The position numbers and the translations under genes were made by a program. A model generated the notes under the pieces. The model was given only the letters and a program-made list of their open reading frames with translations, made no database searches and was not told the origin of the DNA. Positions 316 to 53,798 of a stretch of DNA of 64,000 nucleotides are shown here, piece after piece (the stretch's first letter is position 1; each line of letters opens with the position of its first letter). This DNA is from Escherichia phage VEcB: the sequence record NC_052663.1. One strand, 5' to 3'.

Positions 316-1299
316 ATGGCAAAGCCACAATACTACCCTGACTGGGCGACACAAACAGTAACCCTCCCAGGAACGGGAAACACAAACAAGATTAGACCAA
401 AAGAAACCATCCGTAATGTTGGTATGGACTTTGGTCAGATTATGACTTGTGAAGAAATGAACTGGATCTTAAACAATATTGGGTCTTGGATTCGCTATAT
501 GCAAGATGAATTCTTCCCAACATTGCCTACTACATATCTTCCTATAGTCGGTACTAAAATTACAATGGCAGGTGATGCTACAGGTGAAGTTACATGGAAT
601 GGTAATGCTGCTGTAACATTATCTATTCAAGTCGTAGATAACAGCCATAATCACTTATCAGCTAACATTACAGACGCAACATCAAACCAAGTTGTAGGGA
701 ACGTCCTTGTTAAGCGTGATAATGGTGGTGCTATCTATGCAGGTGATATTTACACTTGTGGTACAGGTGCTACAGATCCTGCAACATTATTCTTTAGAAA
801 CTACAACGGACAAACAGTAGGTAATATGTCCTCTGAACCAGGTGCAGGTGGTCAACTCTATATTTATAGAATGAATCCATCAACTGGGGGAACATCTTGT
901 GCAGTCCGTTTATATGATGCAGGTTATGTTTTAATAGACAATCCTCGTTCTAATTCTGGTCAAGATACTGGTAATGGTAATGCTCTTGTAAGATTAGACT
1001 ATCTTAACTCCAGACTAAACTCATTGCAAAGCACACTGCAAAATAATATTAACAACGTTAATAGTAACTTGCAAGGCCAAATTAATAGCATTAACAATAG
1101 AGTTTCTTCTGTTGTGTCTGCTATCCGTCTTGGAACACGTATCCAAGCTGGTGTGTCTGAGTCTCGTTTCTATGCTGGTCACGTGATCACAGGTTGGGGT
1201 TTTGGTGACAAGAAAGAACTTCGTGGTGCTTGGTATTGGTCAGCCCCGCTACAATATTATATTAATGGTAGCTGGATAACAGTAACCAACGTTTCGTAA
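316..1299 (+). CDS. Putative tail fibre / receptor-binding protein with central coiled coil
   Basis: AAGGAG RBS; heptad-like segment DYLNSRLNSLQSTLQNNINNVNSNLQGQINSINNRV; followed by a tail fibre assembly gene. Confidence 0.5.
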   Translation: MAKPQYYPDWATQTVTLPGTGNTNKIRPKETIRNVGMDFGQIMTCEEMNWILNNIGSWIRYMQDEFFPTLPTTYLPIVGTKITMAGDATGEVTWNGNAAVTLSIQVVDNSHNHLSANITDATSNQVVGNVLVKRDNGGAIYAGDIYTCGTGATDPATLFFRNYNGQTVGNMSSEPGAGGQLYIYRMNPSTGGTSCAVRLYDAGYVLIDNPRSNSGQDTGNGNALVRLDYLNSRLNSLQSTLQNNINNVNSNLQGQINSINNRVSSVVSAIRLGTRIQAGVSESRFYAGHVITGWGFGDKKELRGAWYWSAPLQYYINGSWITVTNVS

Positions 1300-1308
1300 G
1301 GAGAGTCT

Positions 1309-1860
1309 ATGAAAAAAGATGTTATTTTTACAGGTTTTGAATTGTATGAACCAGAATTAACAGAAGAAAATATTCTTTATCTTTCTGTTGGTGGTGGTTT
1401 TTTGCAAGACAAAGATGGTAACGACTGGTATCAGCTTCAAAAAACTTTGATGGTAGAATATCCCGACGCTTATTTTATTACCTTAGATGATAATAATATT
1501 GTACGTGGTGCTACTAAAGATGTTACTACCTATTTCCCTGCCGGACAATCTATTTTAGTTACATATAATGTACCAGATAAAATAGAAGATGAAAGTAACA
1601 TTGGCTCTTGGCAATATGTTGAAGGTAAGTTTGTTCCTCACAATAATCTTGCTATTGAAGATGCTACTCTTAAGTTAGAAAAGGAGCTAACTTGGGCTAC
1701 GAATCAAGTGTCTGCGATTCAAGATTTAGAGGAATTACAAGGTTTATCTGAAGAACAAAAAGATTGGTTAGGAAAAGTTAAACTCTATCGTGCAACATTA
1801 ATTCAAATTAACGTTGAAGATGCACCTAATATAACTTGGCCTACAAGACCTAAGAAATAG
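1309..1860 (+). CDS. Tail fibre assembly protein (Tfa-like chaperone)
   Basis: C-terminal region (KLYRATLIQINVEDAPNITWPTRP) resembles the conserved C-terminus of lambda-type Tfa proteins; sits between fibre genes. Confidence 0.5.
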   Translation: MKKDVIFTGFELYEPELTEENILYLSVGGGFLQDKDGNDWYQLQKTLMVEYPDAYFITLDDNNIVRGATKDVTTYFPAGQSILVTYNVPDKIEDESNIGSWQYVEGKFVPHNNLAIEDATLKLEKELTWATNQVSAIQDLEELQGLSEEQKDWLGKVKLYRATLIQINVEDAPNITWPTRPKK

Positions 1861-1869
1861 GGGCAATGT

Positions 1870-2211
1870 ATGGAGCTAACAGAAGTATGGGATATCGCTA
1901 AAGAGGCGATTATCCCTCTTATTGGCGTAATCTGGGTGGTCTTCAAACAGAAGATAGATGATATGGCAAGTGATTTGGATAAAATGGAAGACAAATACCG
2001 CGAACTAGAAAAGAAGTTGGTGTTTGTTGAATCCACTTATGCTACCAAAGCAGAACTTGCTCAAATGCTTAACCAGATCAACTCTACATTAATGGCAAAT
2101 AATACTGCCTTAGAACAGAAGATTGAAAAAATAATGGATTTAAAAAATGCTCCTGTTCAATTAATGCTAGAGGAGATTACAAAGCGCACACAAAGTAAGG
2201 ACAAAAATTAA
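1870..2211 (+). CDS. Small protein with N-terminal hydrophobic helix and coiled coil, function unknown
   Basis: ORF track; N-terminal IIPLIGVIWVVF segment then charged coiled-coil-like sequence. Confidence 0.3.
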   Translation: MELTEVWDIAKEAIIPLIGVIWVVFKQKIDDMASDLDKMEDKYRELEKKLVFVESTYATKAELAQMLNQINSTLMANNTALEQKIEKIMDLKNAPVQLMLEEITKRTQSKDKN

Positions 2212-4625
2212 TGGCGAATTTTCCAACATATCCTGCTACGACACTAGAACAAGGTGTTGATCTGGTTATATTCTCGTCTAACCAGATGCATGATGTTATT
2301 AATGGAGATGCTACAGCAACTGTAGAAACCGAAACAGGTTTAATACCTACACTGCGTAAAGCACTTGTTGATAACTTCTTCTTTAAGAGTCCTGTTGCTT
2401 GGTCAGCAGGATCAACTGAAACTGTATTTAACCAGTTACGTTATTTTGAAAACGGTATCTTGAGTGGGTACTATTATGCCCCATCTGCCACTACTGCGAA
2501 CCCTGTACCTATGCAGGGCACACCTGTAGGAGACAGTAACTGGACTCTGTACGCTCTTAAAACTGAACAGTTAGCTTCAGATGTGTATCCTTGGTATTTT
2601 AAAGGTGCTACAGGATATGAAACAGAAATCAGTCCTCCTTATATCTTTGATAATGCTATTGTCACCATTAACGGTGTAATTCAGATTCAAGGTGAAGCAT
2701 TTACTATCAGAGATAGTAAAATTATTCTGGCAGAACCATTAGGTTTAGATCCGTCTACTGGTCTACCTAACAAATTGTTTGCTTTTATTGGTAAAACAAC
2801 AGCCTCTACTTCTTACGTAGAGAAAAACCTTTTGTCATCTACCACTGGTGCAGCAATGGTTGGTCTTCCATCTGGAGGCAACCTGTTACAAGCTCAATAC
2901 TTTGTAACGCCTGAGCAGTTTGGTGCAATTGGTGATGGAGTTACCGATGATACTCAAGCAATTTTAAAAACTATTACTTTCGCTAACACGAATAACATTC
3001 AAGTACGTGCAGATAAGAATTATAGATTCACAAGCTCAATTGCTATGTCTGGTATTCGTTGGTATGGTGGTACATTCACTGGTAACGGTGGAACAATGAT
3101 TTCTACTGTGTCCTGTTGGATGGAAAACGTTCGCTTTGAAAAATGTTATGTTAAGATGTTAGGTGGTGATTGCCGATTCTATCGTAATATCTTCTCCAAC
3201 GCAACATCTACAGCAGCATTCTTAATGCAAGCAATGACAAGTGAAGGTACGTTGGACTTCAGTTACAACGAAATGTATGGTTGTAAATATGCGATCCTGC
3301 AACAAGGTACTGGAGAAGTAATGACCTATGGGCGTTACTCTAACAACTATATTCACGATATCAAAGGTGATGCTATTGAACTTAACGTAGTTCAAAAACA
3401 CTACACTGAAGGTTTGATTATCGAGAATAACCACATTGCTAACGTAGATGCTTCTGGACAAGGGGCAAACTGGGGTATTGGTATTGGTGTAGCAGGTAGT
3501 GGCCCATATGGTGTTGATGTTCCTGATTCACAATATGTACGTAATTTCAGTATCGTTGGGAATAGGGTTTACAATTGCCGTCAATGTTTACACGTTGAAA
3601 TGGGTAAAAACTTCACAATACGTGATAATGAAGTTTATCCTAACACAGCAGTTTCAACAGGTACAGGTTTAACTACTTGTGGTGTTGCATTATACGGATG
3701 CCAAGATTTTGAAGTTGATGGTTTAACTGGTTATCTGCTCAATGATCCTTCTGTTTCAACACGTATGGTCTTTATTGACTGGGGTGTTAACAGTGGAAGA
3801 TATGCGGGGCCACCAATTAACTTTACAATTAAGAATTTGGATATTCCAGAATCTTCAATTGAGATTGCAACATCTGGATCAGATGCCTGGGAAAACTCTA
3901 CAATTGTTAGTAATATCAATTGTAATGTTTTTAAATGGCGTGGGCTACCATCTAGCTCTACCTTTAATAATATTCGTTGCCGTAGTATTGACTTTATTGG
4001 TCAACACGGAAGCGGAGAAGGAAGTGGTGGCGGTTTCTATACTCGCAGCCAATTCACGTATATGAAGTGGGTAGGATGTACAGCACTTAGCGGAGATGAA
4101 ACAACAGTTTCTTTTGCTAAAATCTACACTGATCGTTGCGATCAGGTTGGAAATAACTTTGGTGTTCCAACTGCTGTTGATGGTACAGGTCATCGTGGGC
4201 CAGTTTTAACTACTATTTCTGAACAATATTTTACAACTTATGATGAATTCCCAGGTGGGCGTGAATTCCCTACTGGAACAGTTATTCATTGTGCAAGCGG
4301 TAAAAAACATGTTGTTACAGTAGGTGGTGCTTTCTTTAGTGCCAACGAGAAAATAAAAGCAACTGTTACAGGTCAAACCTATCTACAGTCTAATGCTTTA
4401 AACTGGGCTAGTAATGGCTACGCTAAAGCAGCAGGTACTAAAATTGTTATTCCAGGTGCAGGTGCAAATGGCGGCGATCTTGTGACAACTATAGCACGTG
4501 CTACATATGTGACAAATAGTTTGTACACAATAGATATTGCAGATCCAATTGTAACACCTACAGCAGAGAATACACAAATCAAAGCTCTGAACCCTGTTAC
4601 TTTTGTTACTGTCAATAATGCTTAA
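2211..4625 (+). CDS. Tailspike / depolymerase with right-handed beta-helix (pectate-lyase-like) domain
   Basis: 804 aa; motif QFGAIGDGVTDDTQAILK typical of the N-terminus of pectate-lyase-fold beta-helices; repetitive G/N/T-rich beta-strand-like sequence; hairpin terminator downstream. Confidence 0.65.
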   Translation: MANFPTYPATTLEQGVDLVIFSSNQMHDVINGDATATVETETGLIPTLRKALVDNFFFKSPVAWSAGSTETVFNQLRYFENGILSGYYYAPSATTANPVPMQGTPVGDSNWTLYALKTEQLASDVYPWYFKGATGYETEISPPYIFDNAIVTINGVIQIQGEAFTIRDSKIILAEPLGLDPSTGLPNKLFAFIGKTTASTSYVEKNLLSSTTGAAMVGLPSGGNLLQAQYFVTPEQFGAIGDGVTDDTQAILKTITFANTNNIQVRADKNYRFTSSIAMSGIRWYGGTFTGNGGTMISTVSCWMENVRFEKCYVKMLGGDCRFYRNIFSNATSTAAFLMQAMTSEGTLDFSYNEMYGCKYAILQQGTGEVMTYGRYSNNYIHDIKGDAIELNVVQKHYTEGLIIENNHIANVDASGQGANWGIGIGVAGSGPYGVDVPDSQYVRNFSIVGNRVYNCRQCLHVEMGKNFTIRDNEVYPNTAVSTGTGLTTCGVALYGCQDFEVDGLTGYLLNDPSVSTRMVFIDWGVNSGRYAGPPINFTIKNLDIPESSIEIATSGSDAWENSTIVSNINCNVFKWRGLPSSSTFNNIRCRSIDFIGQHGSGEGSGGGFYTRSQFTYMKWVGCTALSGDETTVSFAKIYTDRCDQVGNNFGVPTAVDGTGHRGPVLTTISEQYFTTYDEFPGGREFPTGTVIHCASGKKHVVTVGGAFFSANEKIKATVTGQTYLQSNALNWASNGYAKAAGTKIVIPGAGANGGDLVTTIARATYVTNSLYTIDIADPIVTPTAENTQIKALNPVTFVTVNNA

Positions 4626-4629
4626 TTAA

Positions 4630-4652
4630 AAAGGGGCGAAAGCCCCTTTATA
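4630..4652 (+). terminator. Rho-independent terminator after the tailspike gene
   Basis: GGGGC-GAAA-GCCCC hairpin then TTTA-rich tail. Confidence 0.5.
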
Positions 4653-4666
4653 AAAGGAGTAGTAAA

Positions 4667-6628
4667 GTGATTTTAACACGTCCAAATAGTGCCATTGCAG
4701 ACATGGTAGAGTCTCGCTATAGAAAGCGTAGAAGTTTTGCAAGTGGTTTTACCTTAAGAGATGCTCGTGAAGCATTGCTCTTTGAAACTGACGGTAACTA
4801 CTATCAGTGGAAAGGTTCTCTACCTAAAGTTGTACCTGCTAACTCTACTCCTACATCTACTGGAGGGATTTCAGATACAGCTTGGAAAAATGTGGGTAAT
4901 GCAGATGACATTGCTCAAATAGAATCAGAATTAGATGCTATTGAAGCTGAAATTGAAGATCTTAGAGAATCCATTCCAGAAGCTGGTAAATCAGCTTACC
5001 AGATTGCCGTAGACAATGGTTTCCAAGGTGCTGAGACAGACTGGTTGGCTTCTTTAAAAGGTGATCCAGGTGCTCCATTAAAGCTGCTAGGGACGCTATC
5101 TAATACCAACCAATTACCTACAACCGGAAACAATGCAGGAGATGCATGGATTGTAGGAGAAAATATGTATGCTTGGGATGGTACTGCTTGGAGAAAAGTA
5201 AACTCACAGGGGCCAGAAGGTAAATCAGCTTATCAAGTTTGGCTTGCAGCAGGAAACCAAGGTACAGAACTAGATTATCTTGCTTCAATTAAAGGTGATA
5301 AAGGGGAACCTGGCCCAGAGGGGCCACAAGGTGTACCAGGTAACAATGCTAATGGTTTTGATTACCAAGGTGCAGCTAATTCCGTTTCAGATCTTCCTTC
5401 TGCATCTCCTGGAAACACATCTCAAGCATGGAGTATTGGTACATATCTATACGTGTCAAACGGTGTAGAATGGATCAATATGGGCGCTATAGTGGGGCCA
5501 AAAGGAGATAAAGGCGACAAAGGAGATAAGGGTAACACTGGTGATTCAGCTTATCAAGTCTGGTTAAACGCTGGTAACGTTGGTACTATTGACGAATATA
5601 TTGCCTCTCTGAAAGGAGAAAAAGGTGATAAGGGAGACAAGGGTGATCAAGGTGAGCAGGGTATACAAGGCTTGACGGGGCCAACTGGTGCAGGGTTGAC
5701 CATTATTGATATTCTGACTGACACTTCTGAACTACCACAAACTGGAGAAGATGGTGATGGTTATCTGATCAATAATGAACTTTGGGTTTGGTTGCAAGGA
5801 GCCACACAGTGGACAAATGTTGGTCGTTTAGCTGGTACTCCAATCACTGCAAAAGGACACGTTGCGTCTGCAAGTGCACTTCCTCCTACATCCAATTACG
5901 GTGATGCTTATCTAACGGAAGACACAGGTCATCTTTACATTTACACCTATGATGAACAAACTCAAACTGCTGAATATGTAGATATGGGTAGTTTGAAAGG
6001 TGATAAGGGTGAGAAAGGTGACGCTGGTACTAACGGTACGGATGGTGCAACTTGGATTGTTAAAACAACAGATCCAATCTCTAGTGATGGTAAACAAGGT
6101 GATTATGCCTTTAATATCTCCACTGGCGAGGTGTTCTTAAAAACATCTGCAACTGTCTGGACTTCTCAAGGTACACTACCTAGCATCACAGATGCACCTA
6201 GTGACGGTAAGATCTATGCTCGTAAAGATGGAGCATGGGAAGAACTAACTAGTTCTGTAGATGGTCAAGATATAGTTCCAACAAAAGTAACAGCTAATTT
6301 TATAGAGGTTACAGCATACACCAACAACTCTGTTATAGGTGACTGGACACCTCCAGGAACACATAACATGAATGTGTTGAATCTTACTGGTAACGCTACT
6401 ATAAAAGCATGGCCTGGTGTCGAAGATAGCACAAAACCTAAACCATTCTCTGCAATAGTTTATCTTATCCAAGATGCCACTGGAGGTCGTACTGTTACTT
6501 TAGATCCATCTTACAAAGTAATTGGTTCTAGTGATATTAATACAGATCCTAACGGAGTAACAATACTACAACTAACATATTGTGGTGTTGGCAATTACGT
6601 GGATGCTATTGTTGCTAAACGCACATAA
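4667..6628 (+). CDS. Tail fibre protein with collagen-like Gly-X-Y tracts and three copies of a ~35-aa repeat
   Basis: GTG start with AAAGGAG RBS; GDKGDKGDKGNTGDS, GEKGDKGDKGDQGEQGIQGLTGPTG; repeat SAYQ(I/V)..G..GTE.DYLAS(L/I)KG(D/E) present three times. Confidence 0.6.
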   Translation: MILTRPNSAIADMVESRYRKRRSFASGFTLRDAREALLFETDGNYYQWKGSLPKVVPANSTPTSTGGISDTAWKNVGNADDIAQIESELDAIEAEIEDLRESIPEAGKSAYQIAVDNGFQGAETDWLASLKGDPGAPLKLLGTLSNTNQLPTTGNNAGDAWIVGENMYAWDGTAWRKVNSQGPEGKSAYQVWLAAGNQGTELDYLASIKGDKGEPGPEGPQGVPGNNANGFDYQGAANSVSDLPSASPGNTSQAWSIGTYLYVSNGVEWINMGAIVGPKGDKGDKGDKGNTGDSAYQVWLNAGNVGTIDEYIASLKGEKGDKGDKGDQGEQGIQGLTGPTGAGLTIIDILTDTSELPQTGEDGDGYLINNELWVWLQGATQWTNVGRLAGTPITAKGHVASASALPPTSNYGDAYLTEDTGHLYIYTYDEQTQTAEYVDMGSLKGDKGEKGDAGTNGTDGATWIVKTTDPISSDGKQGDYAFNISTGEVFLKTSATVWTSQGTLPSITDAPSDGKIYARKDGAWEELTSSVDGQDIVPTKVTANFIEVTAYTNNSVIGDWTPPGTHNMNVLNLTGNATIKAWPGVEDSTKPKPFSAIVYLIQDATGGRTVTLDPSYKVIGSSDINTDPNGVTILQLTYCGVGNYVDAIVAKRT

Positions 6629-6631
6629 TCA

Positions 6632-6657
6632 AAGCCCCTTCGGGGGCTTATTATTTA
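6632..6657 (+). terminator. Rho-independent terminator after the collagen-like fibre gene
   Basis: GCCCC-TTCG-GGGGC hairpin followed by TTATTATTT. Confidence 0.55.
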
Positions 6658-6667
6658 AGGAGATTAA

Positions 6668-8554
6668 ATGTATCCTATTCCTTTATTTATGTCAACAACA
6701 TCAGCTTCAGTAGTAACAGCTACATCTATAACCACTTCCTCTATTGGTATTGCAATAGTTGGTAGTAAAAAGCAACTGACATACACAGTTTCACCGGAAG
6801 ATGGTGCGTTATTTGATATAGCTTTTTCATCTTCAGATAATACCAAAATGGTTATAGATAATAGTGGTATGATGGAGTTTGTTGCCGAAGGTGGTTTTGA
6901 TGCAATAATGACAGCTAAAAATAATTTAGGTGCTGTCTTAACTGATCAATCTGGTGGTTATGCTTCAGAATTAAGCGTGTACACTGAAAGTCTATCCGCT
7001 ATGGATGTAGGCACTACTCAACAGTTGGTTGCTACAATCAGTCCAGAAGGTGCTAAAGACCTTCCAGATATGGTAATTACATACACCACAACAGATCCAG
7101 AAGTAGCTACTGTAAGCCCTACAGGATTAATAACTGCTCTTAAAGATGGCAATTGCCGTATAGGTTGTACTGCAACGTATCAAGGAACAGTTGTGGCCTC
7201 TGATAGTTCTTATTTAGGTGTTAATGCTATTCCTGTTATTTCTAATGTAACAGCCGTGGCAAACAGTTATGGAGACGTTCGTGTTGCTTGGGATGTAACT
7301 GATCCACTAGACGGTGATACTTATACTGTAGAAGTATTAGATTTAAGTGATAATAGTGTTCAGTGGACTACAACAACCACGAATACTTACGCTTACTTTG
7401 ATATCTCTGACTCTATTCCTCTTTATGGGTTTGCTCCAACATACCTTAAAATTAGCGTTAAGAGCACCAAAGCAGCAGCCGTTATCTTTAATAACTCAAT
7501 AGCTACAGATGATTCGTTCATTAAAGAAGTTATTGTCTTTGCTGGACAAGATAACGTAAATGCACACTTTACAGAATTATCTGGTGCAAATAAAGCAGTA
7601 ATGAGTAGCACAACAACCCGTAATGCATATGCTACGCAACGTGGTTTAGCAAATGCTGAAGTTCTTCCGTTAAATACAGCTTCTGGATCATCAGCAGCAG
7701 ATAAATATGCTGACGATAAAGCTGGAACAGGTACACCAGACAACTACTGGTATGATCTGGATAACACAGCAGATGGGCCATGCTTAACTAACTTTATCAC
7801 TAAAGTCACACCTTATGCAAGTAAGGTTAAAGCAATTATTTGGGGACAAGGTGAAAATGATGCTGTATCAGCATCTTCGACTGTTGCAGGTAGGTACAGT
7901 AACACTACACGTTACCATGATGCTACGATAGCTATCTTTGATAAGATGCGTACAATAGTTCCTGCTTCTCAAGCAAAAATTGTTTGGCAGATCCTAGGAC
8001 GTTCTTATTTATATGGTGTAGAAGTTAATGGTGTGGATTGGCAGAAGTACAGAAATGTACAAAGAACCATCTCTACAGCACGTGATGATGTTATCATTGG
8101 TTCTTGGGTAGATGGTGCTGAACGTTACAGTGGTTATGTTTATGAAGAAGGTATTGATGGTCGTATCCATTATATTTCTTCTGTATATCAAACAGCAGCT
8201 ACAAAACTTGCTAAATCAGCAGCAGACGGTACAGATTTAACATCAACACCACCTGTTTGGGTTGATATGTCTGTTCCAACAGGAGGAGCCGCTGTAAGAC
8301 AAGCTAACCAAGATGCAATTATTTCTTGGGAACCAGCAGGATATACCAAACATTACTTCCGAAATGTAAACGTCCTCACAGCAGCAATTCTTACAGAACA
8401 AACTCTTGATACTAACACTTACACATTTACTTATGCAGATCAGGTTGAACAATACGGGTTTGCAGCAGGTACAGCAGTGTTTGATGTTGCACACTATGAT
8501 GCTGATAATGACGTGTTATCACCTCTTGTCAGATTTACAGTCAATGTTACATAA
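6668..8554 (+). CDS. Tail fibre/spike protein with Ig-like (Big_2-type) region and C-terminal SASA/SGNH-like carbohydrate esterase-like domain
   Basis: Big_2-like segment (PEVATVSPTGLITALKDGNCRIGCTA); C-terminal IIWGQGENDA resembles the W-x-QGE-(S/N)-D motif of sialate O-acetylesterase-like domains; upstream FAGQDNVN where GQSN would be expected. Confidence 0.45.
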   Translation: MYPIPLFMSTTSASVVTATSITTSSIGIAIVGSKKQLTYTVSPEDGALFDIAFSSSDNTKMVIDNSGMMEFVAEGGFDAIMTAKNNLGAVLTDQSGGYASELSVYTESLSAMDVGTTQQLVATISPEGAKDLPDMVITYTTTDPEVATVSPTGLITALKDGNCRIGCTATYQGTVVASDSSYLGVNAIPVISNVTAVANSYGDVRVAWDVTDPLDGDTYTVEVLDLSDNSVQWTTTTTNTYAYFDISDSIPLYGFAPTYLKISVKSTKAAAVIFNNSIATDDSFIKEVIVFAGQDNVNAHFTELSGANKAVMSSTTTRNAYATQRGLANAEVLPLNTASGSSAADKYADDKAGTGTPDNYWYDLDNTADGPCLTNFITKVTPYASKVKAIIWGQGENDAVSASSTVAGRYSNTTRYHDATIAIFDKMRTIVPASQAKIVWQILGRSYLYGVEVNGVDWQKYRNVQRTISTARDDVIIGSWVDGAERYSGYVYEEGIDGRIHYISSVYQTAATKLAKSAADGTDLTSTPPVWVDMSVPTGGAAVRQANQDAIISWEPAGYTKHYFRNVNVLTAAILTEQTLDTNTYTFTYADQVEQYGFAAGTAVFDVAHYDADNDVLSPLVRFTVNVT

Positions 8555-47156: not shown

Positions 47157-47447
47157 ATGAACATCACACTAGCAACTAAGAATATTACAGAAACTTTCGA
47201 TGGTTTTGGCATTATTATTGCTGTTCATGGGCATAACGAAAAATGGTTAGCCTCTTTTGAAGAGGACAAAGAACGCAATGTACGTTTGAATGCACCAATC
47301 AAAGTTTTACACCAGGTAGGTGAGAATAAGAAACAATGGAGATCATACAAAGAGTGGAACATTACAAACGAATTAATACACAAACTTGACAAAGTGATAA
47401 ACATGTTCGACAATGCACCAAGCAGTGCAAAACGTGTTTTACTATAA
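47157..47447 (+). CDS. Hypothetical small protein
   Basis: ORF track; first + strand gene after the strand switch. Confidence 0.35.
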   Translation: MNITLATKNITETFDGFGIIIAVHGHNEKWLASFEEDKERNVRLNAPIKVLHQVGENKKQWRSYKEWNITNELIHKLDKVINMFDNAPSSAKRVLL

Positions 47448-47458
47448 AGGAGAGTGAT

Positions 47459-47812
47459 ATGAAAATTGTACACGATGAAATTCAATTTGAAGAGAGTGAT
47501 CTTCTTGATCTGGATGTGACACTAAGTAAACTGATCTACAACGCACTTTCTGCATATCGTGCAAAAGTGATAGCCACAAACAATGTTAAAATTCCTAGCG
47601 GGTTACTTCGTCGGATGTACCCACACGCTAAAGGTGACTATCTACCTTATATGGAAGAACGAGCAGCAGAACACTGGTTAGAAATTCTTGAAAAAATGGA
47701 GTCCTCTTTTAAGGATTCAACCCCACCTGAAGAAGTTAATGAAAAACAACGGCAAGAGCGTTTAGAAGGTCGTATTTTGTTTGCTAAGTATTTCCATAAT
47801 TTGTGGAGCTAA
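47459..47812 (+). CDS. Hypothetical protein
   Basis: ORF track; RBS AAGGAGAG. Confidence 0.4.
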   Translation: MKIVHDEIQFEESDLLDLDVTLSKLIYNALSAYRAKVIATNNVKIPSGLLRRMYPHAKGDYLPYMEERAAEHWLEILEKMESSFKDSTPPEEVNEKQRQERLEGRILFAKYFHNLWS

Positions 47813-47910
47813 ACATAGCTGGTAAAATCACTTATATGTTCTTAGTATACTTGTGTAAAGAAGTTATCTAACAGGTGTTGAGTGGACTATTAAATTAGGA
47901 GGGCTTTAAT

Positions 47911-48249
47911 ATGTTTAGTAAAGAAATGAGAGAAGTAATTGCCACTTTGGTAGTTGATCATGGTGTTGAAGTTGAGCGTCACGTTTGGAACGATGAACCT
48001 CCTTTCTTCGATTTGGCATCACGAGCTAAAAGTCATATGCACCTGCTGGAAGACGGTAATGAGTTTGTTCTCCGTATGCGTTATGATCGAGAGTTTCGAA
48101 TTCCGCTTGACACTGAACCAGATGGTGTAGTAATGTGGTTGGCAGAACATTTCGCATACGATGCACTACATGGAAGAAGTTTTGGTAATGAGCGTTGGGA
48201 TGCCATTTGTCGTAAGCATAATATTGAACCAGAGTACGGAGTTTTATAA
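47911..48249 (+). CDS. Hypothetical protein
   Basis: ORF track; RBS AGGAGGG. Confidence 0.4.
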   Translation: MFSKEMREVIATLVVDHGVEVERHVWNDEPPFFDLASRAKSHMHLLEDGNEFVLRMRYDREFRIPLDTEPDGVVMWLAEHFAYDALHGRSFGNERWDAICRKHNIEPEYGVL

Positions 48250-48500
48250 TGTTAAGTATCAAACCTAAAATGATAACAGCAGATGAAGCAGACTTTATTT
48301 TCAAATGTGGACGTGTATGGAGAGAGTTCACAAAAGGGAATGAAGTGGTTGTTGTTGTCGAACACAAGATATCTATTCAGGATCTGTTTGGACAATATGT
48401 TGATGTTATTAAATTAGGTATTGACAAGGGTTTAGTTGAGGTGTTAACATTAGATCAAGTTGAAGCAGAGCACCTCGACAAAGTAGTGGTTGAATTTTAA
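48249..48500 (+). CDS. Hypothetical small protein
   Basis: ORF track; overlapping stop/start. Confidence 0.35.
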   Translation: MLSIKPKMITADEADFIFKCGRVWREFTKGNEVVVVVEHKISIQDLFGQYVDVIKLGIDKGLVEVLTLDQVEAEHLDKVVVEF

Positions 48501-48520
48501 AATACAGACGGGAGAAAGGT

Positions 48521-48694
48521 ATGAGTTTCTTTGTTACAGTATTTATGGCTATCTGGATTGTAGTCTCACTCGTTCTTTTCCTGGTGGGTTGTCTGGAAGA
48601 GATTAAGAAAGCGGTTATTTGCGGTTTCTTTGGCTTTATTATCTCTCCTGCCTGGATGTGGTTCTTCATTATGATTGGTTTCCTTAAAAGGTAA
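48521..48694 (+). CDS. Small membrane protein (57 aa, two hydrophobic helices), not in the ORF track
   Basis: ATG with GGGAGAAAGG RBS; strongly hydrophobic. Confidence 0.35.
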   Translation: MSFFVTVFMAIWIVVSLVLFLVGCLEEIKKAVICGFFGFIISPAWMWFFIMIGFLKR

Positions 48695-48708
48695 GTGAGG
48701 AATAAAGA

Positions 48709-49146
48709 ATGAGTAAAACAAACGCAATCGCAGATAAAGCAACGGATGTACTTCTGAACATGGTTAACGTCACTATTCAAACAATGAGTGATGTTGTGGA
48801 GTTTGGAAAACAACAAATTCCAGAAGTAATCCATCAATTGTTAGTGTGGAAAGCAGTATCCGCAGGTTTATGGCAACTTTTTAGTATTTGCTTTATGTTT
48901 ATTACTTTTATTGCTGTACGGAACCTCGTAAAAGCAATTAAAGATAAAGAATGCCTGTGGTCACGAGATCGCTATGGTGAAGTATCTGCTTTACCTATTG
49001 TTGGCCTTGTTGTCTGTGCTTTCTTTTTCTTTTTAGGATTTGTTATTTTCTTTTCGAATTTTGATTGGCTAAAAATCATTATTGCACCAAAAGTGTATCT
49101 GATTGAATTTGCTGCTGATTTAATTCGTTCATCTCAACAAAGATAA
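48709..49146 (+). CDS. Membrane protein
   Basis: Several hydrophobic segments; RBS GTGAGGAA. Confidence 0.4.
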   Translation: MSKTNAIADKATDVLLNMVNVTIQTMSDVVEFGKQQIPEVIHQLLVWKAVSAGLWQLFSICFMFITFIAVRNLVKAIKDKECLWSRDRYGEVSALPIVGLVVCAFFFFLGFVIFFSNFDWLKIIIAPKVYLIEFAADLIRSSQQR

Positions 49147-49158
49147 AAGGGGTTTAAA

Positions 49159-50286
49159 ATGAAATACACGATTTATGGTGATATTGTAAGTGTAAATAAA
49201 GATATGGGCGTGGAATCTAACTATCTTCCACCTGGATTCTATACTGTTAGTCGTGATCCCCTTGGCAATTATTTTTTAAGCCGTGGTAATCTGACAGGTG
49301 TACCGGATGTTCTGTATGGTGAAACAGAAAAACGAGCAAATCACGTTATTCGTACATTCCATCGCCGGAGTGCACAAGGTAAAAATACAGGCTTGCTTCT
49401 GACAGGAACTAAGGGCAGTGGTAAAACTATGTTAGCCAAACTCATTAGTCGTGACCTTGTAGAAGAAGGTATTCCAACTATTATGGTTACTCAAGCCTAC
49501 AGCGATGCTAATTTCATTGAACTTATTAGCAAGATCACCGACAAAGCAGTGATTATTTTTGACGAGTTTGATAAAGTATATGAGAAGAAACAAGATCAAG
49601 AAGCACTTCTCACTTTGTTAGATGGTACTGGCAGTGGTAATAAACTGTTTATTCTGACTAAAAACAGTGGTTTTATCTCTGAATTCTTTTTAAATCGTCC
49701 TAGTCGTGTGTTTTATAATTTTAATTATGATAAAATCTCACTAGAAACTATGATTGACTATTTAGATAAAAACCTGGATAACAAAGCACACTTTGATAAT
49801 TTCCAAAGACTTTGGGATGTAAGTTTAGAGTTGTCCTTTGATGTGATCCAAGGTATAGTAGAAGAACTTAATTTCTACCCTGATTTGTCCTTTAAAGAAT
49901 GCATCTCTATGATGGGCGTTTCTTTGGGTGGTGGTAATAAATGGGATATCAGCAGCGTTGTTATTAATGGGAAACTTCAGAAAGTTAGCTGGGTATCTAG
50001 TTGGCATAACTTTACACCTGCAATCTTTTTAGGTGGTTCGTGCACACTAGACGTGTATTTGTCATCTCCAAGTGATGCAGACTCTAAAGAAGCCCTTGCT
50101 AATAGCTCTTACGTGGTTTTTGATGATGAAGGCGATGCTCGAATTCCATTGAATGCGACAAAAATGAAAGCAGATCTTATCACAGGCGGTAAAATCGTTG
50201 TGTTTAGTGATGATCCAGAAGATTCTTTCCGTATTGTTCTGGAACCAACTATCACCAATGGTGCAACTTTGGCAAGTGTGTTTTAA
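49159..50286 (+). CDS. P-loop NTPase (AAA-like), paralog B
   Basis: Walker A GTKGSGKT, Walker B IIFDEFDK; colinear with 32464..33624; hairpin terminator downstream. Confidence 0.55.
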   Translation: MKYTIYGDIVSVNKDMGVESNYLPPGFYTVSRDPLGNYFLSRGNLTGVPDVLYGETEKRANHVIRTFHRRSAQGKNTGLLLTGTKGSGKTMLAKLISRDLVEEGIPTIMVTQAYSDANFIELISKITDKAVIIFDEFDKVYEKKQDQEALLTLLDGTGSGNKLFILTKNSGFISEFFLNRPSRVFYNFNYDKISLETMIDYLDKNLDNKAHFDNFQRLWDVSLELSFDVIQGIVEELNFYPDLSFKECISMMGVSLGGGNKWDISSVVINGKLQKVSWVSSWHNFTPAIFLGGSCTLDVYLSSPSDADSKEALANSSYVVFDDEGDARIPLNATKMKADLITGGKIVVFSDDPEDSFRIVLEPTITNGATLASVF

Positions 50287-50299
50287 GTAAGCCAGCAAA

Positions 50300-50326
50300 T
50301 AAAAACCCGCTTCGGCGGGTTTTCTT
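50300..50326 (+). terminator. Rho-independent terminator after ATPase paralog B
   Basis: AAAACCCGC-TTCG-GCGGGTTTTCTT. Confidence 0.6.
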
Positions 50327-50360
50327 GCATTAATGCCAGATTTAATAAGAGGAGTAGTAG

Positions 50361-51350
50361 ATGGCAGCACCAAAATCATGGGAACAATATAAAGAAGAGT
50401 GTATACCAATAGCAGAGAGTAAGCAAATCCAAATCTTAGGATGGACGGGACAATGGAAAGGGGTCCACACAAAACTTGATTTGTTGTGCCATTGTGGTTA
50501 TAAATGGGATACTACAAGTATTAACAGTTTTAAATGTGGTAGCGGTTGTCCACAATGTAGGAGGAAGAATATAAGGAAGTCACAAACAATGTCCGACGAT
50601 CAACATATTGCAGATTTCTTTTCTACAGGGGAATTTAAGGAAGGCACTATCTTCACTAACACAGGAACACGGGGTAAAGGATGTAGGAATATTATCTGGA
50701 TGGTTGAATGTCCTGTTTGCTCTCATGATGAATATGTTCAAGCAGGTGTTTGTGATGGTAAATTTTACTCTGAAGGAGATAACCTTAAACGAGGGTATAT
50801 TCCGTGTCGTTGTGGGAACTATCGGTATACAGAAGACCAGATCACCTATAGGGTAAAAAAGGAAGTAGAAGGGAAAGGGTATGTCTGGGTAGATTGGATT
50901 ACCAAACCCTCTTCTATAGGTAAGTTTAAATATCTTTGTCTTGTGCATGGTGAGCAGATAGGGAGTGCTCATAATTTATTAAGCCTCGGTCGAGGTTGTC
51001 CTATGTGTGCTGGTCATAGTCAGCAGCAGTTATATATTAATATTGTTAAGGATGATAATATTATAGTTGCTCTTAAGTTTGGTATAGCTAAAGATAGTGA
51101 TAGACGATTAAAAATTCAAAATAGCCGTAATATGTTTCCTATGGAGCGTATTTGTTTATATGATTTTAGCACAGTAAAACAATGTAAGGCTGCTGAAAGA
51201 GCTATAAAGAAAAAATTAAAAACTGGTATTTTAACGGAAAGAGAGTTGAAAGACGGTTATACAGAAACAGTAAGTGTTTCTGATTTGGAAAATCTTCAAA
51301 AAATTATTACACAATATGGTGGCAAATTAGTATACAGTAAGGAGATGTAA
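50361..51350 (+). CDS. Zinc-ribbon-rich protein, possibly nuclease/homing-endonuclease-like
   Basis: Several CxxC pairs (CGSGCPQC, CPVCSHDE, CPMC); RBS AAGAGGAG. Confidence 0.3.
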   Translation: MAAPKSWEQYKEECIPIAESKQIQILGWTGQWKGVHTKLDLLCHCGYKWDTTSINSFKCGSGCPQCRRKNIRKSQTMSDDQHIADFFSTGEFKEGTIFTNTGTRGKGCRNIIWMVECPVCSHDEYVQAGVCDGKFYSEGDNLKRGYIPCRCGNYRYTEDQITYRVKKEVEGKGYVWVDWITKPSSIGKFKYLCLVHGEQIGSAHNLLSLGRGCPMCAGHSQQQLYINIVKDDNIIVALKFGIAKDSDRRLKIQNSRNMFPMERICLYDFSTVKQCKAAERAIKKKLKTGILTERELKDGYTETVSVSDLENLQKIITQYGGKLVYSKEM

Positions 51351-51902
51351 ATGCGGATTACTGATAAGTATGTGTTCTTCTTTTCAGCAAAAGATGAATT
51401 TAGCAACTGGTATCTATCATCTTTTATTGAACCTTTAGCACCCAAGTATAATAATTCTATTACAAGTTCTGTTGAATTTACTTGTGTGGAACAATATATG
51501 ATGTGGAGAAAAGCATGTTTGTTTTATGATTACAGTATTGCATCTTCTATTTTAACCGGAGATCTAAGATATACAGGAGAAAAAGAACAAGCATATTATA
51601 AGCGACTAGGCAGATTAGTTAAAGATTATGATGAAGATACCTGGACTTCTTTACGGGAGAAGATTGTCAAACGTGGTTTGTATCTTAAATACACACAAAA
51701 TGAAGATCTCAAAAATAAACTTATAACCTACGCAGATAAGGAGTTCGTAGAGGCAAGCCCTTATGATTCTATTTATGGTATCAAAATGGGGATGTGGGAT
51801 CGTGACGTGGAAAATAAGGACTGTTGGAAAGGACAAAATCTTTTAGGAAAATGGCATACAGACCTTGCTGTTTATCTAAAAGCACAATCTGATATTTCCT
51901 GA
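51351..51902 (+). CDS. NADAR-domain (YbiA-like) protein
   Basis: Motifs FFFSAKDEFSNWYLSSF and W..G.NLLGKWHTDL match the NADAR/DUF1768 family pattern; ATG overlaps the upstream stop. Confidence 0.55.
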   Translation: MRITDKYVFFFSAKDEFSNWYLSSFIEPLAPKYNNSITSSVEFTCVEQYMMWRKACLFYDYSIASSILTGDLRYTGEKEQAYYKRLGRLVKDYDEDTWTSLREKIVKRGLYLKYTQNEDLKNKLITYADKEFVEASPYDSIYGIKMGMWDRDVENKDCWKGQNLLGKWHTDLAVYLKAQSDIS

Positions 51903-52099
51903 TATTTTGAAAATTTTTATTTTTATAAAAAGGGGTGTGGGTTTCATGTACGGAAATTCACCCTCTGAATAATATATTCAGAGTAAATATTATTTTGTAC
52001 TCTGTTAATAAATTATTTAATTTGTTTGTTGGATTATGATATCTGGTTTTTAAAAGGCATACTATCTCTTAACTACTATTTATAACAGAACAGTAAAAT

Positions 52100-52330
52100 C
52101 ATTTTTATAAAAAGGACAAAATTATTTAAAGTTTTTACAGATTTTTGGATACAAATTTTGAAAATGAAAAGTTCAAGTTTGGTCAAAATTATTTAAAGTT
52201 TTTGTATGTATTTCTATCCATATTTTGAAAATGAAAACTTCAATTTTTTAAAAATTCCCCAGTTTATTTAAAGTTTTTTTGCCTTTTTCCGTAGAAAAAT
52301 GAAAAATGAAAAGTTCAATTTCGTGTTTTT
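52100..52330. repeat. Three tandem ~65-70-bp direct repeats in an AT-rich non-coding region
   Basis: Each unit carries AAATTATTTAAAGTTTTT and TTTTGAAAATGAAAAGTTCAA; TTTTTATAAAAAGG also occurs twice upstream. Confidence 0.6.
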
Positions 52331-52339
52331 ATAGGTGTG

Positions 52340-52455
52340 CTAATGAGAATCATTTTCGTTTGTAAATGAGAATCATTATCATTTAACTATGTAAGTGATA
52401 ATCATTCTCAGTAAGAGAATGAGAATCATTAGCAAATGAGAATTTTATCATTTAG
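52340..52455. promoter_or_regulatory. Cluster of five 13-bp palindromes AATGAGAATCATT (and variants) resembling the Fur-box core
   Basis: Copies at ~52342, 52365, 52397 (inverted), 52430, 52434; the 52362-52380 copy matches 16/19 positions of GATAATGATAATCATTATC. Confidence 0.5.
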
Positions 52456-52714
52456 AGAATAACGCGCAGGGGTGGTGTTTGTCTCGCGCTCCCGTGTCCC
52501 CTCGCCATACAATAAGAATAGCATAACCAACAACAAAAGCAAGCGATTATTTTTATCTTTACATTTCTTTACAAATTTATTTTAGACGAGCTACCGGCGA
52601 TCAACCTTCCAACCAGTGCCCCCTGGTATGTTAGCCCCGCCTTTACGCCGTGGGGGTGGCGCTTCCTCTTCTGTATGTAAAACAGTATAAGCCCGATCCC
52701 TGGGCTTGTCAAGA

Positions 52715-53062
52715 TTATTTTTTGTTTTCTTGCCAGGATAGGACACCTAACCAAAAATACATGTCGCCCCGCGCCCCTGGTGGGATCTTGCTTTCCCCGC
52801 CGCCACTGCAAGCCCATAGATAACCATTTGCGAACGTATCAAAATGATCTATTTCTTCCACCTTATGATCGCCCAGGTTGAGAACGGTTTCAACCTTTAA
52901 GCCCGTTGCGCTTGCTACCTGGTGCACCGTGCCGCCTTGCCAGCCCAATGAGTGCATGAGGTGTAAAGTAGTATTTGTCATGGTATCGCCCTTTCTTTGA
53001 TGTGCGCCCTGGTTGGCGCGGTAGAAAGATAATAGCCCCTTTCCTTTATAGATAGCAAGCAA
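52715..53062 (-). CDS. Hypothetical protein inside a GC-rich island (true start possibly the internal Met MTNTT)
   Basis: ORF track; local GC clearly above the window average. Confidence 0.3.
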   Translation of the reverse strand: MLAIYKGKGLLSFYRANQGAHQRKGDTMTNTTLHLMHSLGWQGGTVHQVASATGLKVETVLNLGDHKVEEIDHFDTFANGYLWACSGGGESKIPPGARGDMYFWLGVLSWQENKK

Positions 53063-53248
53063 AAAAGAAATGAAAAAAGATTAAAAAAGGGGTTGACGTT
53101 CCTCACCTGGTAGCGTATTATTCATCTTGTCGAGGGGGGCGAGGCACAACGACAATAAACAAAAGGAGGGCGCAATGTAGGACGGGCAAAGGTGAGGATC
53201 TCCACAATCCACCGTCACAATAACATTACTTATAAAAGGTTGATAACG

Positions 53249-53344
53249 ATGGTCAAGAAAGAAAACAGCTTGACGGTTGGAACGATTAACGCTATCATTC
53301 TCGCCGTTCCATTTTGGATTGTAGTTGCGGTTATTATTTTCTAA
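53249..53344 (+). CDS. Small hydrophobic peptide (31 aa), not in the ORF track
   Basis: ATG downstream of TTGACG-N17-TATTAT promoter-like sequence; single TM-like helix. Confidence 0.25.
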   Translation: MVKKENSLTVGTINAIILAVPFWIVVAVIIF

Positions 53345-53353
53345 AAAATATTC

Positions 53354-53413
53354 TTGACAACGTTTTTTAATCTGATAAGATGTATCACATAGGGCGGGAA
53401 ATGGTTTCCCGCC
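53354..53413 (+). promoter_or_regulatory. Sigma70-type promoter (TTGACA ... TAAGAT) plus conserved leader hairpin GGCGGGAAA-TGG-TTTCCCGCC
   Basis: -35 TTGACA, 16-nt spacer, -10 TAAGAT; perfect 9-bp stem with 3-nt loop starting near the predicted +1. Confidence 0.6.
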
Positions 53414-53435
53414 AAATCAAAGAAAGGGTAATGCA

Positions 53436-53798
53436 ATGAGCAAGCAAATCAATACTATCATGTTAAACCTGGTATCTTTCCGCGACGACGTGAAAAATCT
53501 TCCACGTGATGCAGTGGATGCACGGATCGAAAGCTATCGCTCACAGATCGCAACGCTACCGCTAAAACGTGATCAACATGCCGCTAATATGATGCTTAAT
53601 GCTATGCTTAAAAAGATGATTCAATGTGATCTTACCCTGGCTTATGAATATGCTGGCGATCTCTTTGTAACATATAGCAAGCCCGTACCAGGTATGAGCA
53701 CAACCGAAGAATTGCATGCCTTAAATCTGCGACAAGATGCATGGGATAACATGCGCCGTGTTATGGTATGGGTAGAAAGCGGTAAAATTTACGAATAA
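53436..53798 (+). CDS. Hypothetical early protein
   Basis: ORF track; preceded by sigma70 promoter plus conserved leader hairpin. Confidence 0.5.
   Translation: MSKQINTIMLNLVSFRDDVKNLPRDAVDARIESYRSQIATLPLKRDQHAANMMLNAMLKKMIQCDLTLAYEYAGDLFVTYSKPVPGMSTTEELHALNLRQDAWDNMRRVMVWVESGKIYE

Follow-up and report, generated by a model that had tools for sequence, protein, structure and literature searches.

An AdfN-type NADAR gene of Escherichia phage VEcB and its probable action against DarT1

The NADAR gene and its tested ortholog

The hydrolytic removal of adenosine diphosphate (ADP)-ribose from the N2 position of guanine by NADAR enzymes was established by Schuller et al. in 2023 (PMC11543638) and extended by Cihlova et al. 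in 2024 (PMC11125620). Among phages, a protein of this kind has been found in Bas60, Bas61, and Bas62 and named AdfN^Bas60 (Johannesman, Awasthi, Carlson, and LeRoux, Nat Commun 2025; PMC11825919). AdfN^Bas60 neutralises the toxicity of DarT1 in uninfected E. coli, and its ectopic expression brings three unrelated sensitive phages (RB69, T5, and Bas25) back to full titre on DarTG1 hosts, but it is of no help to T5 against the thymidine-modifying DarTG2 (PMC11825919). In the published phylogeny it groups with bacterial NADARs that are neither DarT-associated nor YbiA, and its acquisition was inferred to be independent of that of the T4-type AdfN (PMC11825919). T4 and T2 were the sole phages in which that work made deletions, and for AdfN^Bas60 the tests were by ectopic expression only (PMC11825919); a literature search returned no paper that mentions DarTG together with phi92-like phages, and no reported deletion in Bas60-62 or in a phi92-like phage. 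The present study concerns an adfN-type NADAR gene, the ortholog of AdfN^Bas60 (bas60_0111 / phi92 gp223), which lies at 51351..51902 on the + strand of a 64,000-nucleotide stretch of Escherichia phage VEcB (NC_052663.1); this whole stretch is referred to as the window.

The gene is an ATG-to-TGA open reading frame (ORF) of 183 residues plus stop, exactly as delimited in an earlier reading of the letters alone (the sequence-only reading). Its product is 99% identical to the proteins of Bas60 and Bas61 and 98% identical to those of Bas62 and phi92. AdfN^Bas60 (QXV83846.1) is encoded by the same gene, in a phage of the same genus and at the corresponding locus, and shares 181 of 183 residues with the window protein; the two substitutions (T126 here for A in Bas60, and A178 here for T) are conservative and fall outside the conserved columns. 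The neighbours are likewise shared, in the order of an AAA ATPase, a CapR/T5orf172 endonuclease, the NADAR gene, and a non-coding gap, while the loci differ in the length of the upstream endonuclease, which has 329 residues in the window and 467 in Bas60. The sequence-only reading had proposed a phage counter-defence by reversal of guanine ADP-ribosylation, and this interpretation is correct in view of the published results for the 99%-identical AdfN^Bas60, which neutralised DarT1 and restored plaquing on DarTG1, and of the N2-guanine biochemistry of NADARs. Its target, given as DarT-family toxins, was drawn too widely: it stands for DarT1 and DarTG1 but not for DarT toxins generally, as there was no effect on DarTG2 (PMC11825919). 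A real counter-defence gene was therefore correctly spotted by a tool-free reading. The finding itself is not new, since the anti-DarT1 function has been published for a protein with differences at only two positions, neither of them conserved.

The window protein belongs to the NADAR superfamily and, within it, to the AdfN^Bas60 orthologous group. Searches with hidden Markov models upheld the family named in the sequence-only reading at a level well past any chance match, with matches to PF08719 (Pfam NADAR / DUF1768; E=5.8e-36, 124.6 bits against a gathering score of 35.1) and to PHROG 1017 (E=1.3e-49); in the former, residues 13-168 span positions 9-154 of the 163 in the profile, which is essentially the whole domain. 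Both of the NADAR/YbiA signatures it quoted are present. The first, FSNWYLSSF (residues 17-25; 51399..51425, + strand), includes S18, invariant in an alignment of 75 homologs, and W20, nearly so. The second, WKGQNLLGKWHTDL (residues 159-172; 51825..51866, + strand), is C-terminal, stands at the start of the last helix (164-181 in the structure model) and contains the invariant residues W159, G161, N163, L165, and G166. Judged by the S-x-W spacing, S18 and W20 probably match the conserved Ser69 and Trp71 in the substrate cleft of Streptomyces coelicolor SCO5665 (residue roles in PMC12945103). The YbiA-like alpha-helical core fold is present, and the Ser/Glu/Lys of the substrate channel are found as S18, E47, and K54, which are invariant in the 75 homologs and align with the equivalents in T4 and in the P. 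nicotianae NADAR (PnNADAR; structure 8BAU). Their described counterparts are S69, E87, and K94 in SCO5665 and E88 and K95 in E. coli C7.

Over 50000-53500, the window shares 95-98% identity with many Justusliebigvirus Escherichia phages (phi92-like, Stephanstirmvirinae), and the NADAR gene has 96.6-100% nucleotide identity across 54 phage records, which include phi92 (gp223), PaulScherrer (Bas60), EmilieFrey (Bas61), and JohannJBalmer (Bas62). The ratio of nonsynonymous to synonymous change (pN/pS) is ~0.02-0.1 for most pairs among seven Justusliebigvirus alleles, which indicates that the gene is functional, constrained, and under purifying selection. For example, the Bas61 and window alleles have 15 nucleotide but 2 amino-acid differences. 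Phapecoctavirus, the sister genus, retains the order of ATPase, endonuclease, NADAR, non-coding gap, and small minus-strand ORF, with a NADAR of 57-59% identity, and hence the gene is old in the subfamily. Four records labelled as Campylobacter phages (A150, A145, C3, and A110a) carry the coliphage NADAR gene at 97.6% identity, which suggests mislabelled or contaminated entries; others so labelled match more distantly.

Taken at about 0.9, the probability is high that the product, which is the Justusliebigvirus ortholog of AdfN^Bas60, is a stand-alone ADP-ribosylglycohydrolase of the NADAR fold that counters DarT1 in DarTG1 hosts. The ORF, the NADAR fold, the conservation of the active site, the 99% identity to a tested protein, and the purifying selection were all computed here; countering DarT1 is probably the main role of the gene in its own phage. 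As phi92-like phages are considered for therapy, their carriage of a self-sufficient anti-DarTG1 factor is useful to know.

The gene is mostly labelled 'hypothetical protein' in GenBank, with a few NADAR or YbiA-like entries; AV123 and vB-Eco-KMB37 have 'GTP cyclohydrolase II', Eryne has 'DNA methyltransferase', and the BASEL annotation of Bas60/61/62 reads 'putative YbiA-like N-glycosidase'. The 54 near-identical copies could be renamed AdfN (anti-DarT1 NADAR). The several records that name a YbiA-like N-glycosidase or GTP cyclohydrolase II would suit a housekeeping enzyme that destroys reactive intermediates of riboflavin biosynthesis. So would the match to TIGR02464 ('riboflavin biosynthesis intermediates N-glycosidase') at 109.5 bits over a cutoff of 73.7, a model that is a domain-level equivalog and also captures stand-alone NADARs, and the presence, as E134, of the catalytic Glu by which the YbiA family is defined (PMC11543638). 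The window protein stands, however, nearer to the stand-alone NADARs than to YbiA, and its identity to E. coli YbiA (2B3W) is 26% over a partial alignment of 82 residues. YbiA is unable to protect cells from DarT1 (PMC11125620), and it falls in a different clade from AdfN^Bas60 (PMC11825919). Such a housekeeping role is very improbable.

Active site, mechanism, and substrate range

The contacts to ADP-ribose were mapped by reading a phmmer alignment to 8BAU against the residue list of Schuller et al. (PMC11543638), with a correction for the two-residue offset that a tag introduces into the chain. The EQYMMWRK segment (51489..51512, + strand) holds E47, which is predicted to position the distal ribose, and K54, which is predicted to bind the diphosphate. 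Both are invariant, were placed by phmmer to 8BAU as well as by hhalign to T4 gp30.3, and are equivalent to E43/K50 of PnNADAR, E88/K95 of E. coli C7 DarG1, and E36/K43 of AdfN^T4; mutagenesis of this pair has been described (PMC11543638; PMC11825919). The putative pyrophosphate-binding residues K84, R88, W98, and R102 (51600..51656, + strand) correspond to K75, R79, W89, and R93 of PnNADAR, with W98 invariant and K84 and R88 nearly invariant in the 75 homologs. The EASPYDSIYG segment (51750..51779, + strand) carries the catalytic E134 (PnNADAR E125 / SCO5665 E167; role of this Glu in PMC11543638 and PMC12945103), D139 (PnNADAR D130), and Y142 (PnNADAR W133), and the change from Trp to Tyr at Y142 is the sole one among the mapped contacts. 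In comparison with homologs at 40-50% identity, the phi92-type NADAR thus has Tyr at position 142, which is otherwise a nearly invariant Trp.

A mechanism at the level of residues may be proposed from the structures and mutants of PnNADAR, DarG1, and SCO5665, and from mutants of AdfN^T4. In a DarTG1 host, DarT1 puts ADP-ribose on the N2 amino group of guanine in the phage DNA, and replication is blocked. The phage enzyme would then grip the ADP-ribose through a basic/aromatic pocket on the pyrophosphate (K54, K84, R88, W98, and R102), with the distal ribose positioned by E47 and D139, and E134 would hydrolyse the bond between guanine and ribose so that unmodified DNA is regained. The enzyme would thus act as an orphan type IV antitoxin from a phage, which supplies the missing antitoxin activity in trans, leaves the toxin itself untouched, and requires no other phage factor. 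A phage NADAR may also act without catalysis: the study of AdfN^Bas60 contrasts AdfN with a phage NADAR that needs no enzymatic activity against retron-Eco1 (Carabias et al., 2024, as cited in PMC11825919), and the ADP-ribose-binding pocket is intact in the window protein. An enzyme is nevertheless favoured, as every residue of the catalytic set is conserved without change in the 75 homologs; moreover, the demonstrated phenotype is the reversal of DarT1. There is very little chance that the role is non-catalytic.

A different question is whether guanine modified by DarT1 is only one substrate of a broad eraser of nucleic-acid ADP-ribose, which would also act on cytidine in DNA and RNA and on guanosine in RNA. 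A study of 2026 has found that NADARs of the Glu type (the 'NADAR' and YbiA families) strip ADP-ribose from both cytidine and guanosine in DNA and RNA, in contrast to DarG1s and the T4 NADAR, which act on guanosine alone (PMC12945103). Since the window protein is Glu-type, with E134 aligned to PnNADAR E125 / SCO5665 E167 at a position held by Asp in DarG1 and by His in T4 AdfN, a dual specificity for cytidine and guanine is a reasonable prediction. The stand-alone NADAR family is the one that the protein most resembles in sequence and in fold, and Johannesman et al. suggested that NADARs might act whichever toxin had placed the modification (PMC11825919). Against this, no anti-phage system that ADP-ribosylates cytidine is known, the function of the cytidine modification is listed as unknown (PMC12945103), and the determinant W53 proposed in the same study proved dispensable, which leaves the rules of specificity unsettled. 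Such a wide substrate range is possible but rather unlikely, and it extends the anti-DarT1 explanation without excluding it. Slightly more doubtful still is the proposal that the phi92-type AdfN is a broad-spectrum counter-defence, active on cytidine and guanine in DNA and RNA and against toxins beyond DarT1. If true, it would also counter other ADP-ribosylating toxins, either pierisin/ScARP-like or undiscovered, and the role would fit both the conservation of the gene throughout Stephanstirmvirinae and the large number of similar NADARs among Herelleviridae and jumbo phages.

Other NADAR families and cellular relatives

The described members of the stand-alone family include the P. nicotianae NADAR (8BAU), SCO5665, and the sigma70-linked NADAR of E. 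coli. The window protein differs from these in being phage-encoded, in the replacement of a pyrophosphate-contacting Trp by Y142, and in two insertions at residues ~29-39 (LAPKYNNSITS) and ~72-83 (LRYT plus AYY). Both insertions are unique to the phi92-type lineage when compared with homologs at 40-50% identity, and both have high confidence in the structure model.

DarG1 (G. lovleyi 8BAT and the NADAR of E. coli C7) has in common with the anti-DarT1 phage protein the removal of ADP-ribose from guanine N2, the neutralisation of DarT1, the superfamily core, and the conserved Glu/Lys pair. A DarG1-type (BC4488-type) antitoxin is nonetheless ruled out, as there is no adjacent DarT, no N-terminal extension, Glu in place of Asp, and a weak structural match. 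None of the 14 flanking ORFs has an ADP-ribosyltransferase domain, the neighbours being the AAA ATPase, the CapR/T5orf172 endonuclease, and small ORFs of unassigned kind. DarG1 proteins have 229-234 residues (PMC11543638) and an N-terminal beta1-beta2-alpha1 extension with a basic DNA groove; the core of the 183-residue window protein starts at residue 7. Where DarG1 has its catalytic Asp (D171 in E. coli C7), E134 is found at the position of PnNADAR E125. A scan with PADLOC gave as its sole match the candidate-system NADAR model PDC-M42C and no DarG model, a result that does not bear on function.

AdfN^T4 (T4 gp30.3) is likewise a phage orphan antitoxin against DarTG1 in the same superfamily. 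Membership of the T4-type 'phage NADAR' group is rejected, as BLASTP to gp30.3 gave E=1.7 and hhalign a probability of 19%. In the hhalign comparison, the mutated E36/K43 of AdfN^T4 stand opposite E47/K54 and the alignment ends at V133; AdfN^T4 differs in having His at the place of E134, which comes opposite only if that alignment is extended by one residue. The two proteins also differ in action: AdfN^T4 depends on the context of a Tevenvirinae infection and gives uninfected cells no protection, whereas AdfN^Bas60 is active by itself.

With an alignment of 10 sequences as the query, cellular relatives (35-42% identity) were found at no fewer than 524 loci, and with the single protein none were found. 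These relatives span Myxococcota, Burkholderia, Paenibacillus, Brachyspira, Bacteroidota, and Lachnospiraceae. For the best 80 cellular loci, neighbouring genes were clustered in search of a partner toxin, and within this set there was no recurrent ADP-ribosyltransferase and no recurrent riboflavin gene; nothing but a microbial-type PARG in Bacillota recurred as a partner, and the remainder was lineage synteny. This PARG macrodomain gene (PF10021, E=2.9e-54) is directly downstream of the NADAR gene in nine Bacillota loci (L026, L027, L031, L035, L037, L065, L067, L069, and L075, at ~4500-5390 in each), and in L085 it precedes it (2332-3159, PF10021). Such a context is one of ADP-ribose removal and not of vitamin metabolism. 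Seven Paenibacillus species, together with a few other bacteria, show this adjacency for the closest cellular relatives, and the pair is a possible two-enzyme module for ADP-ribose removal. NADAR homologs with 42% identity are also present on two jumbo-phage-like contigs, L007 (455-kb) and L009 (310-kb). Their neighbours there encode NMNAT-like CTP_transf_like, NAPRTase/NAMPT, and nucleoside deoxyribosyltransferase-like proteins, GIY-YIG endonucleases, and an Apyc1-like gene, and these neighbourhoods look like clusters of NAD/ADP-ribose and anti-defence functions.

Gene position, neighbours, and the downstream region

An AGGAG ribosome-binding site, read from the sequence, is located at 51340..51344 (+ strand), 6 nucleotides 5' of the NADAR ATG and within the last codons of the upstream gene; the phi92 annotation gives the same site for gp223. 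The stop of that gene (TAA, 51348-51350) abuts the ATG at 51351 (junction AGGAGATGTAAATG). This arrangement suggests that the two genes are co-transcribed and that their translation is possibly coupled. The NADAR gene is the last of a + strand cluster at 47157-51902, which begins where a long - strand block stops. The sequence-only reading had seen it as the last gene of the first + strand early block; it does close its cluster, but large + strand ORFs at 316-8554 form an earlier + strand block of the window, and so the cluster is not the first. Early expression is plausible; the argument from an early block is unnecessary for the conclusion on counter-defence. Matches to sigma-70-like promoters at 46-54 kb showed no excess (33 against 25.8 +/- 5.7 in shuffles).

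The + strand gene at 49159-50286 encodes an AAA+ ATPase (375 residues; PHROG 2376, E=6.6e-108). Its relatives are labelled 'FtsH-like protease' or 'ATPase or Zn metalloprotease', and Pfam found in it only an AAA domain and no protease domain. The next gene (50361-51350, + strand; PHROG 681), which abuts the start of the NADAR gene, is CapR + T5orf172 (GIY-YIG-related) endonuclease-like. Besides the lengths given above for the window and Bas60, its product has 325 residues in Bas61, 396 in phi92, and 390 in Paula and inny; the NADAR, by contrast, has 183 residues throughout these otherwise 96-98% identical relatives. The upstream gene is a variable and possibly mobile endonuclease beside an anti-defence gene.

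Downstream of the NADAR gene, ~1.3 kb (51903-53190) holds almost no convincing coding sequence, and scans with Rfam and for tRNA gave no match there. A stable RNA hairpin at 51931..51966 (+ strand) lies 29 nucleotides past the stop, where the fold of 51895-52005 has a minimum free energy of -24.8 kcal/mol (z=-2.65 against shuffles). A terminator scan found no canonical terminator 3' of the gene, and the hairpin is not one because no U-tract follows it; it is possibly a 3' end or a stabilising structure. The region includes an AT-rich trough at 51900-52400 (21-24% GC) and a GC-rich stretch at 52600-53100 (47-52% GC), the latter with a minus-strand ORF homologous to phi92 gp224. Within the trough, three direct repeats of ~70 nucleotides each occupy 52101-52321, and their sub-motifs AAATTATTTAAAGTTTTT and TTTGAAAATGAAAAGTTCAA are found nowhere else in the window; short and inverted repeats of the GAGAATCATT type follow at 52338-52443. 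The iteron-like layout of 51903-53190 suggests a replication origin or a regulatory hub.
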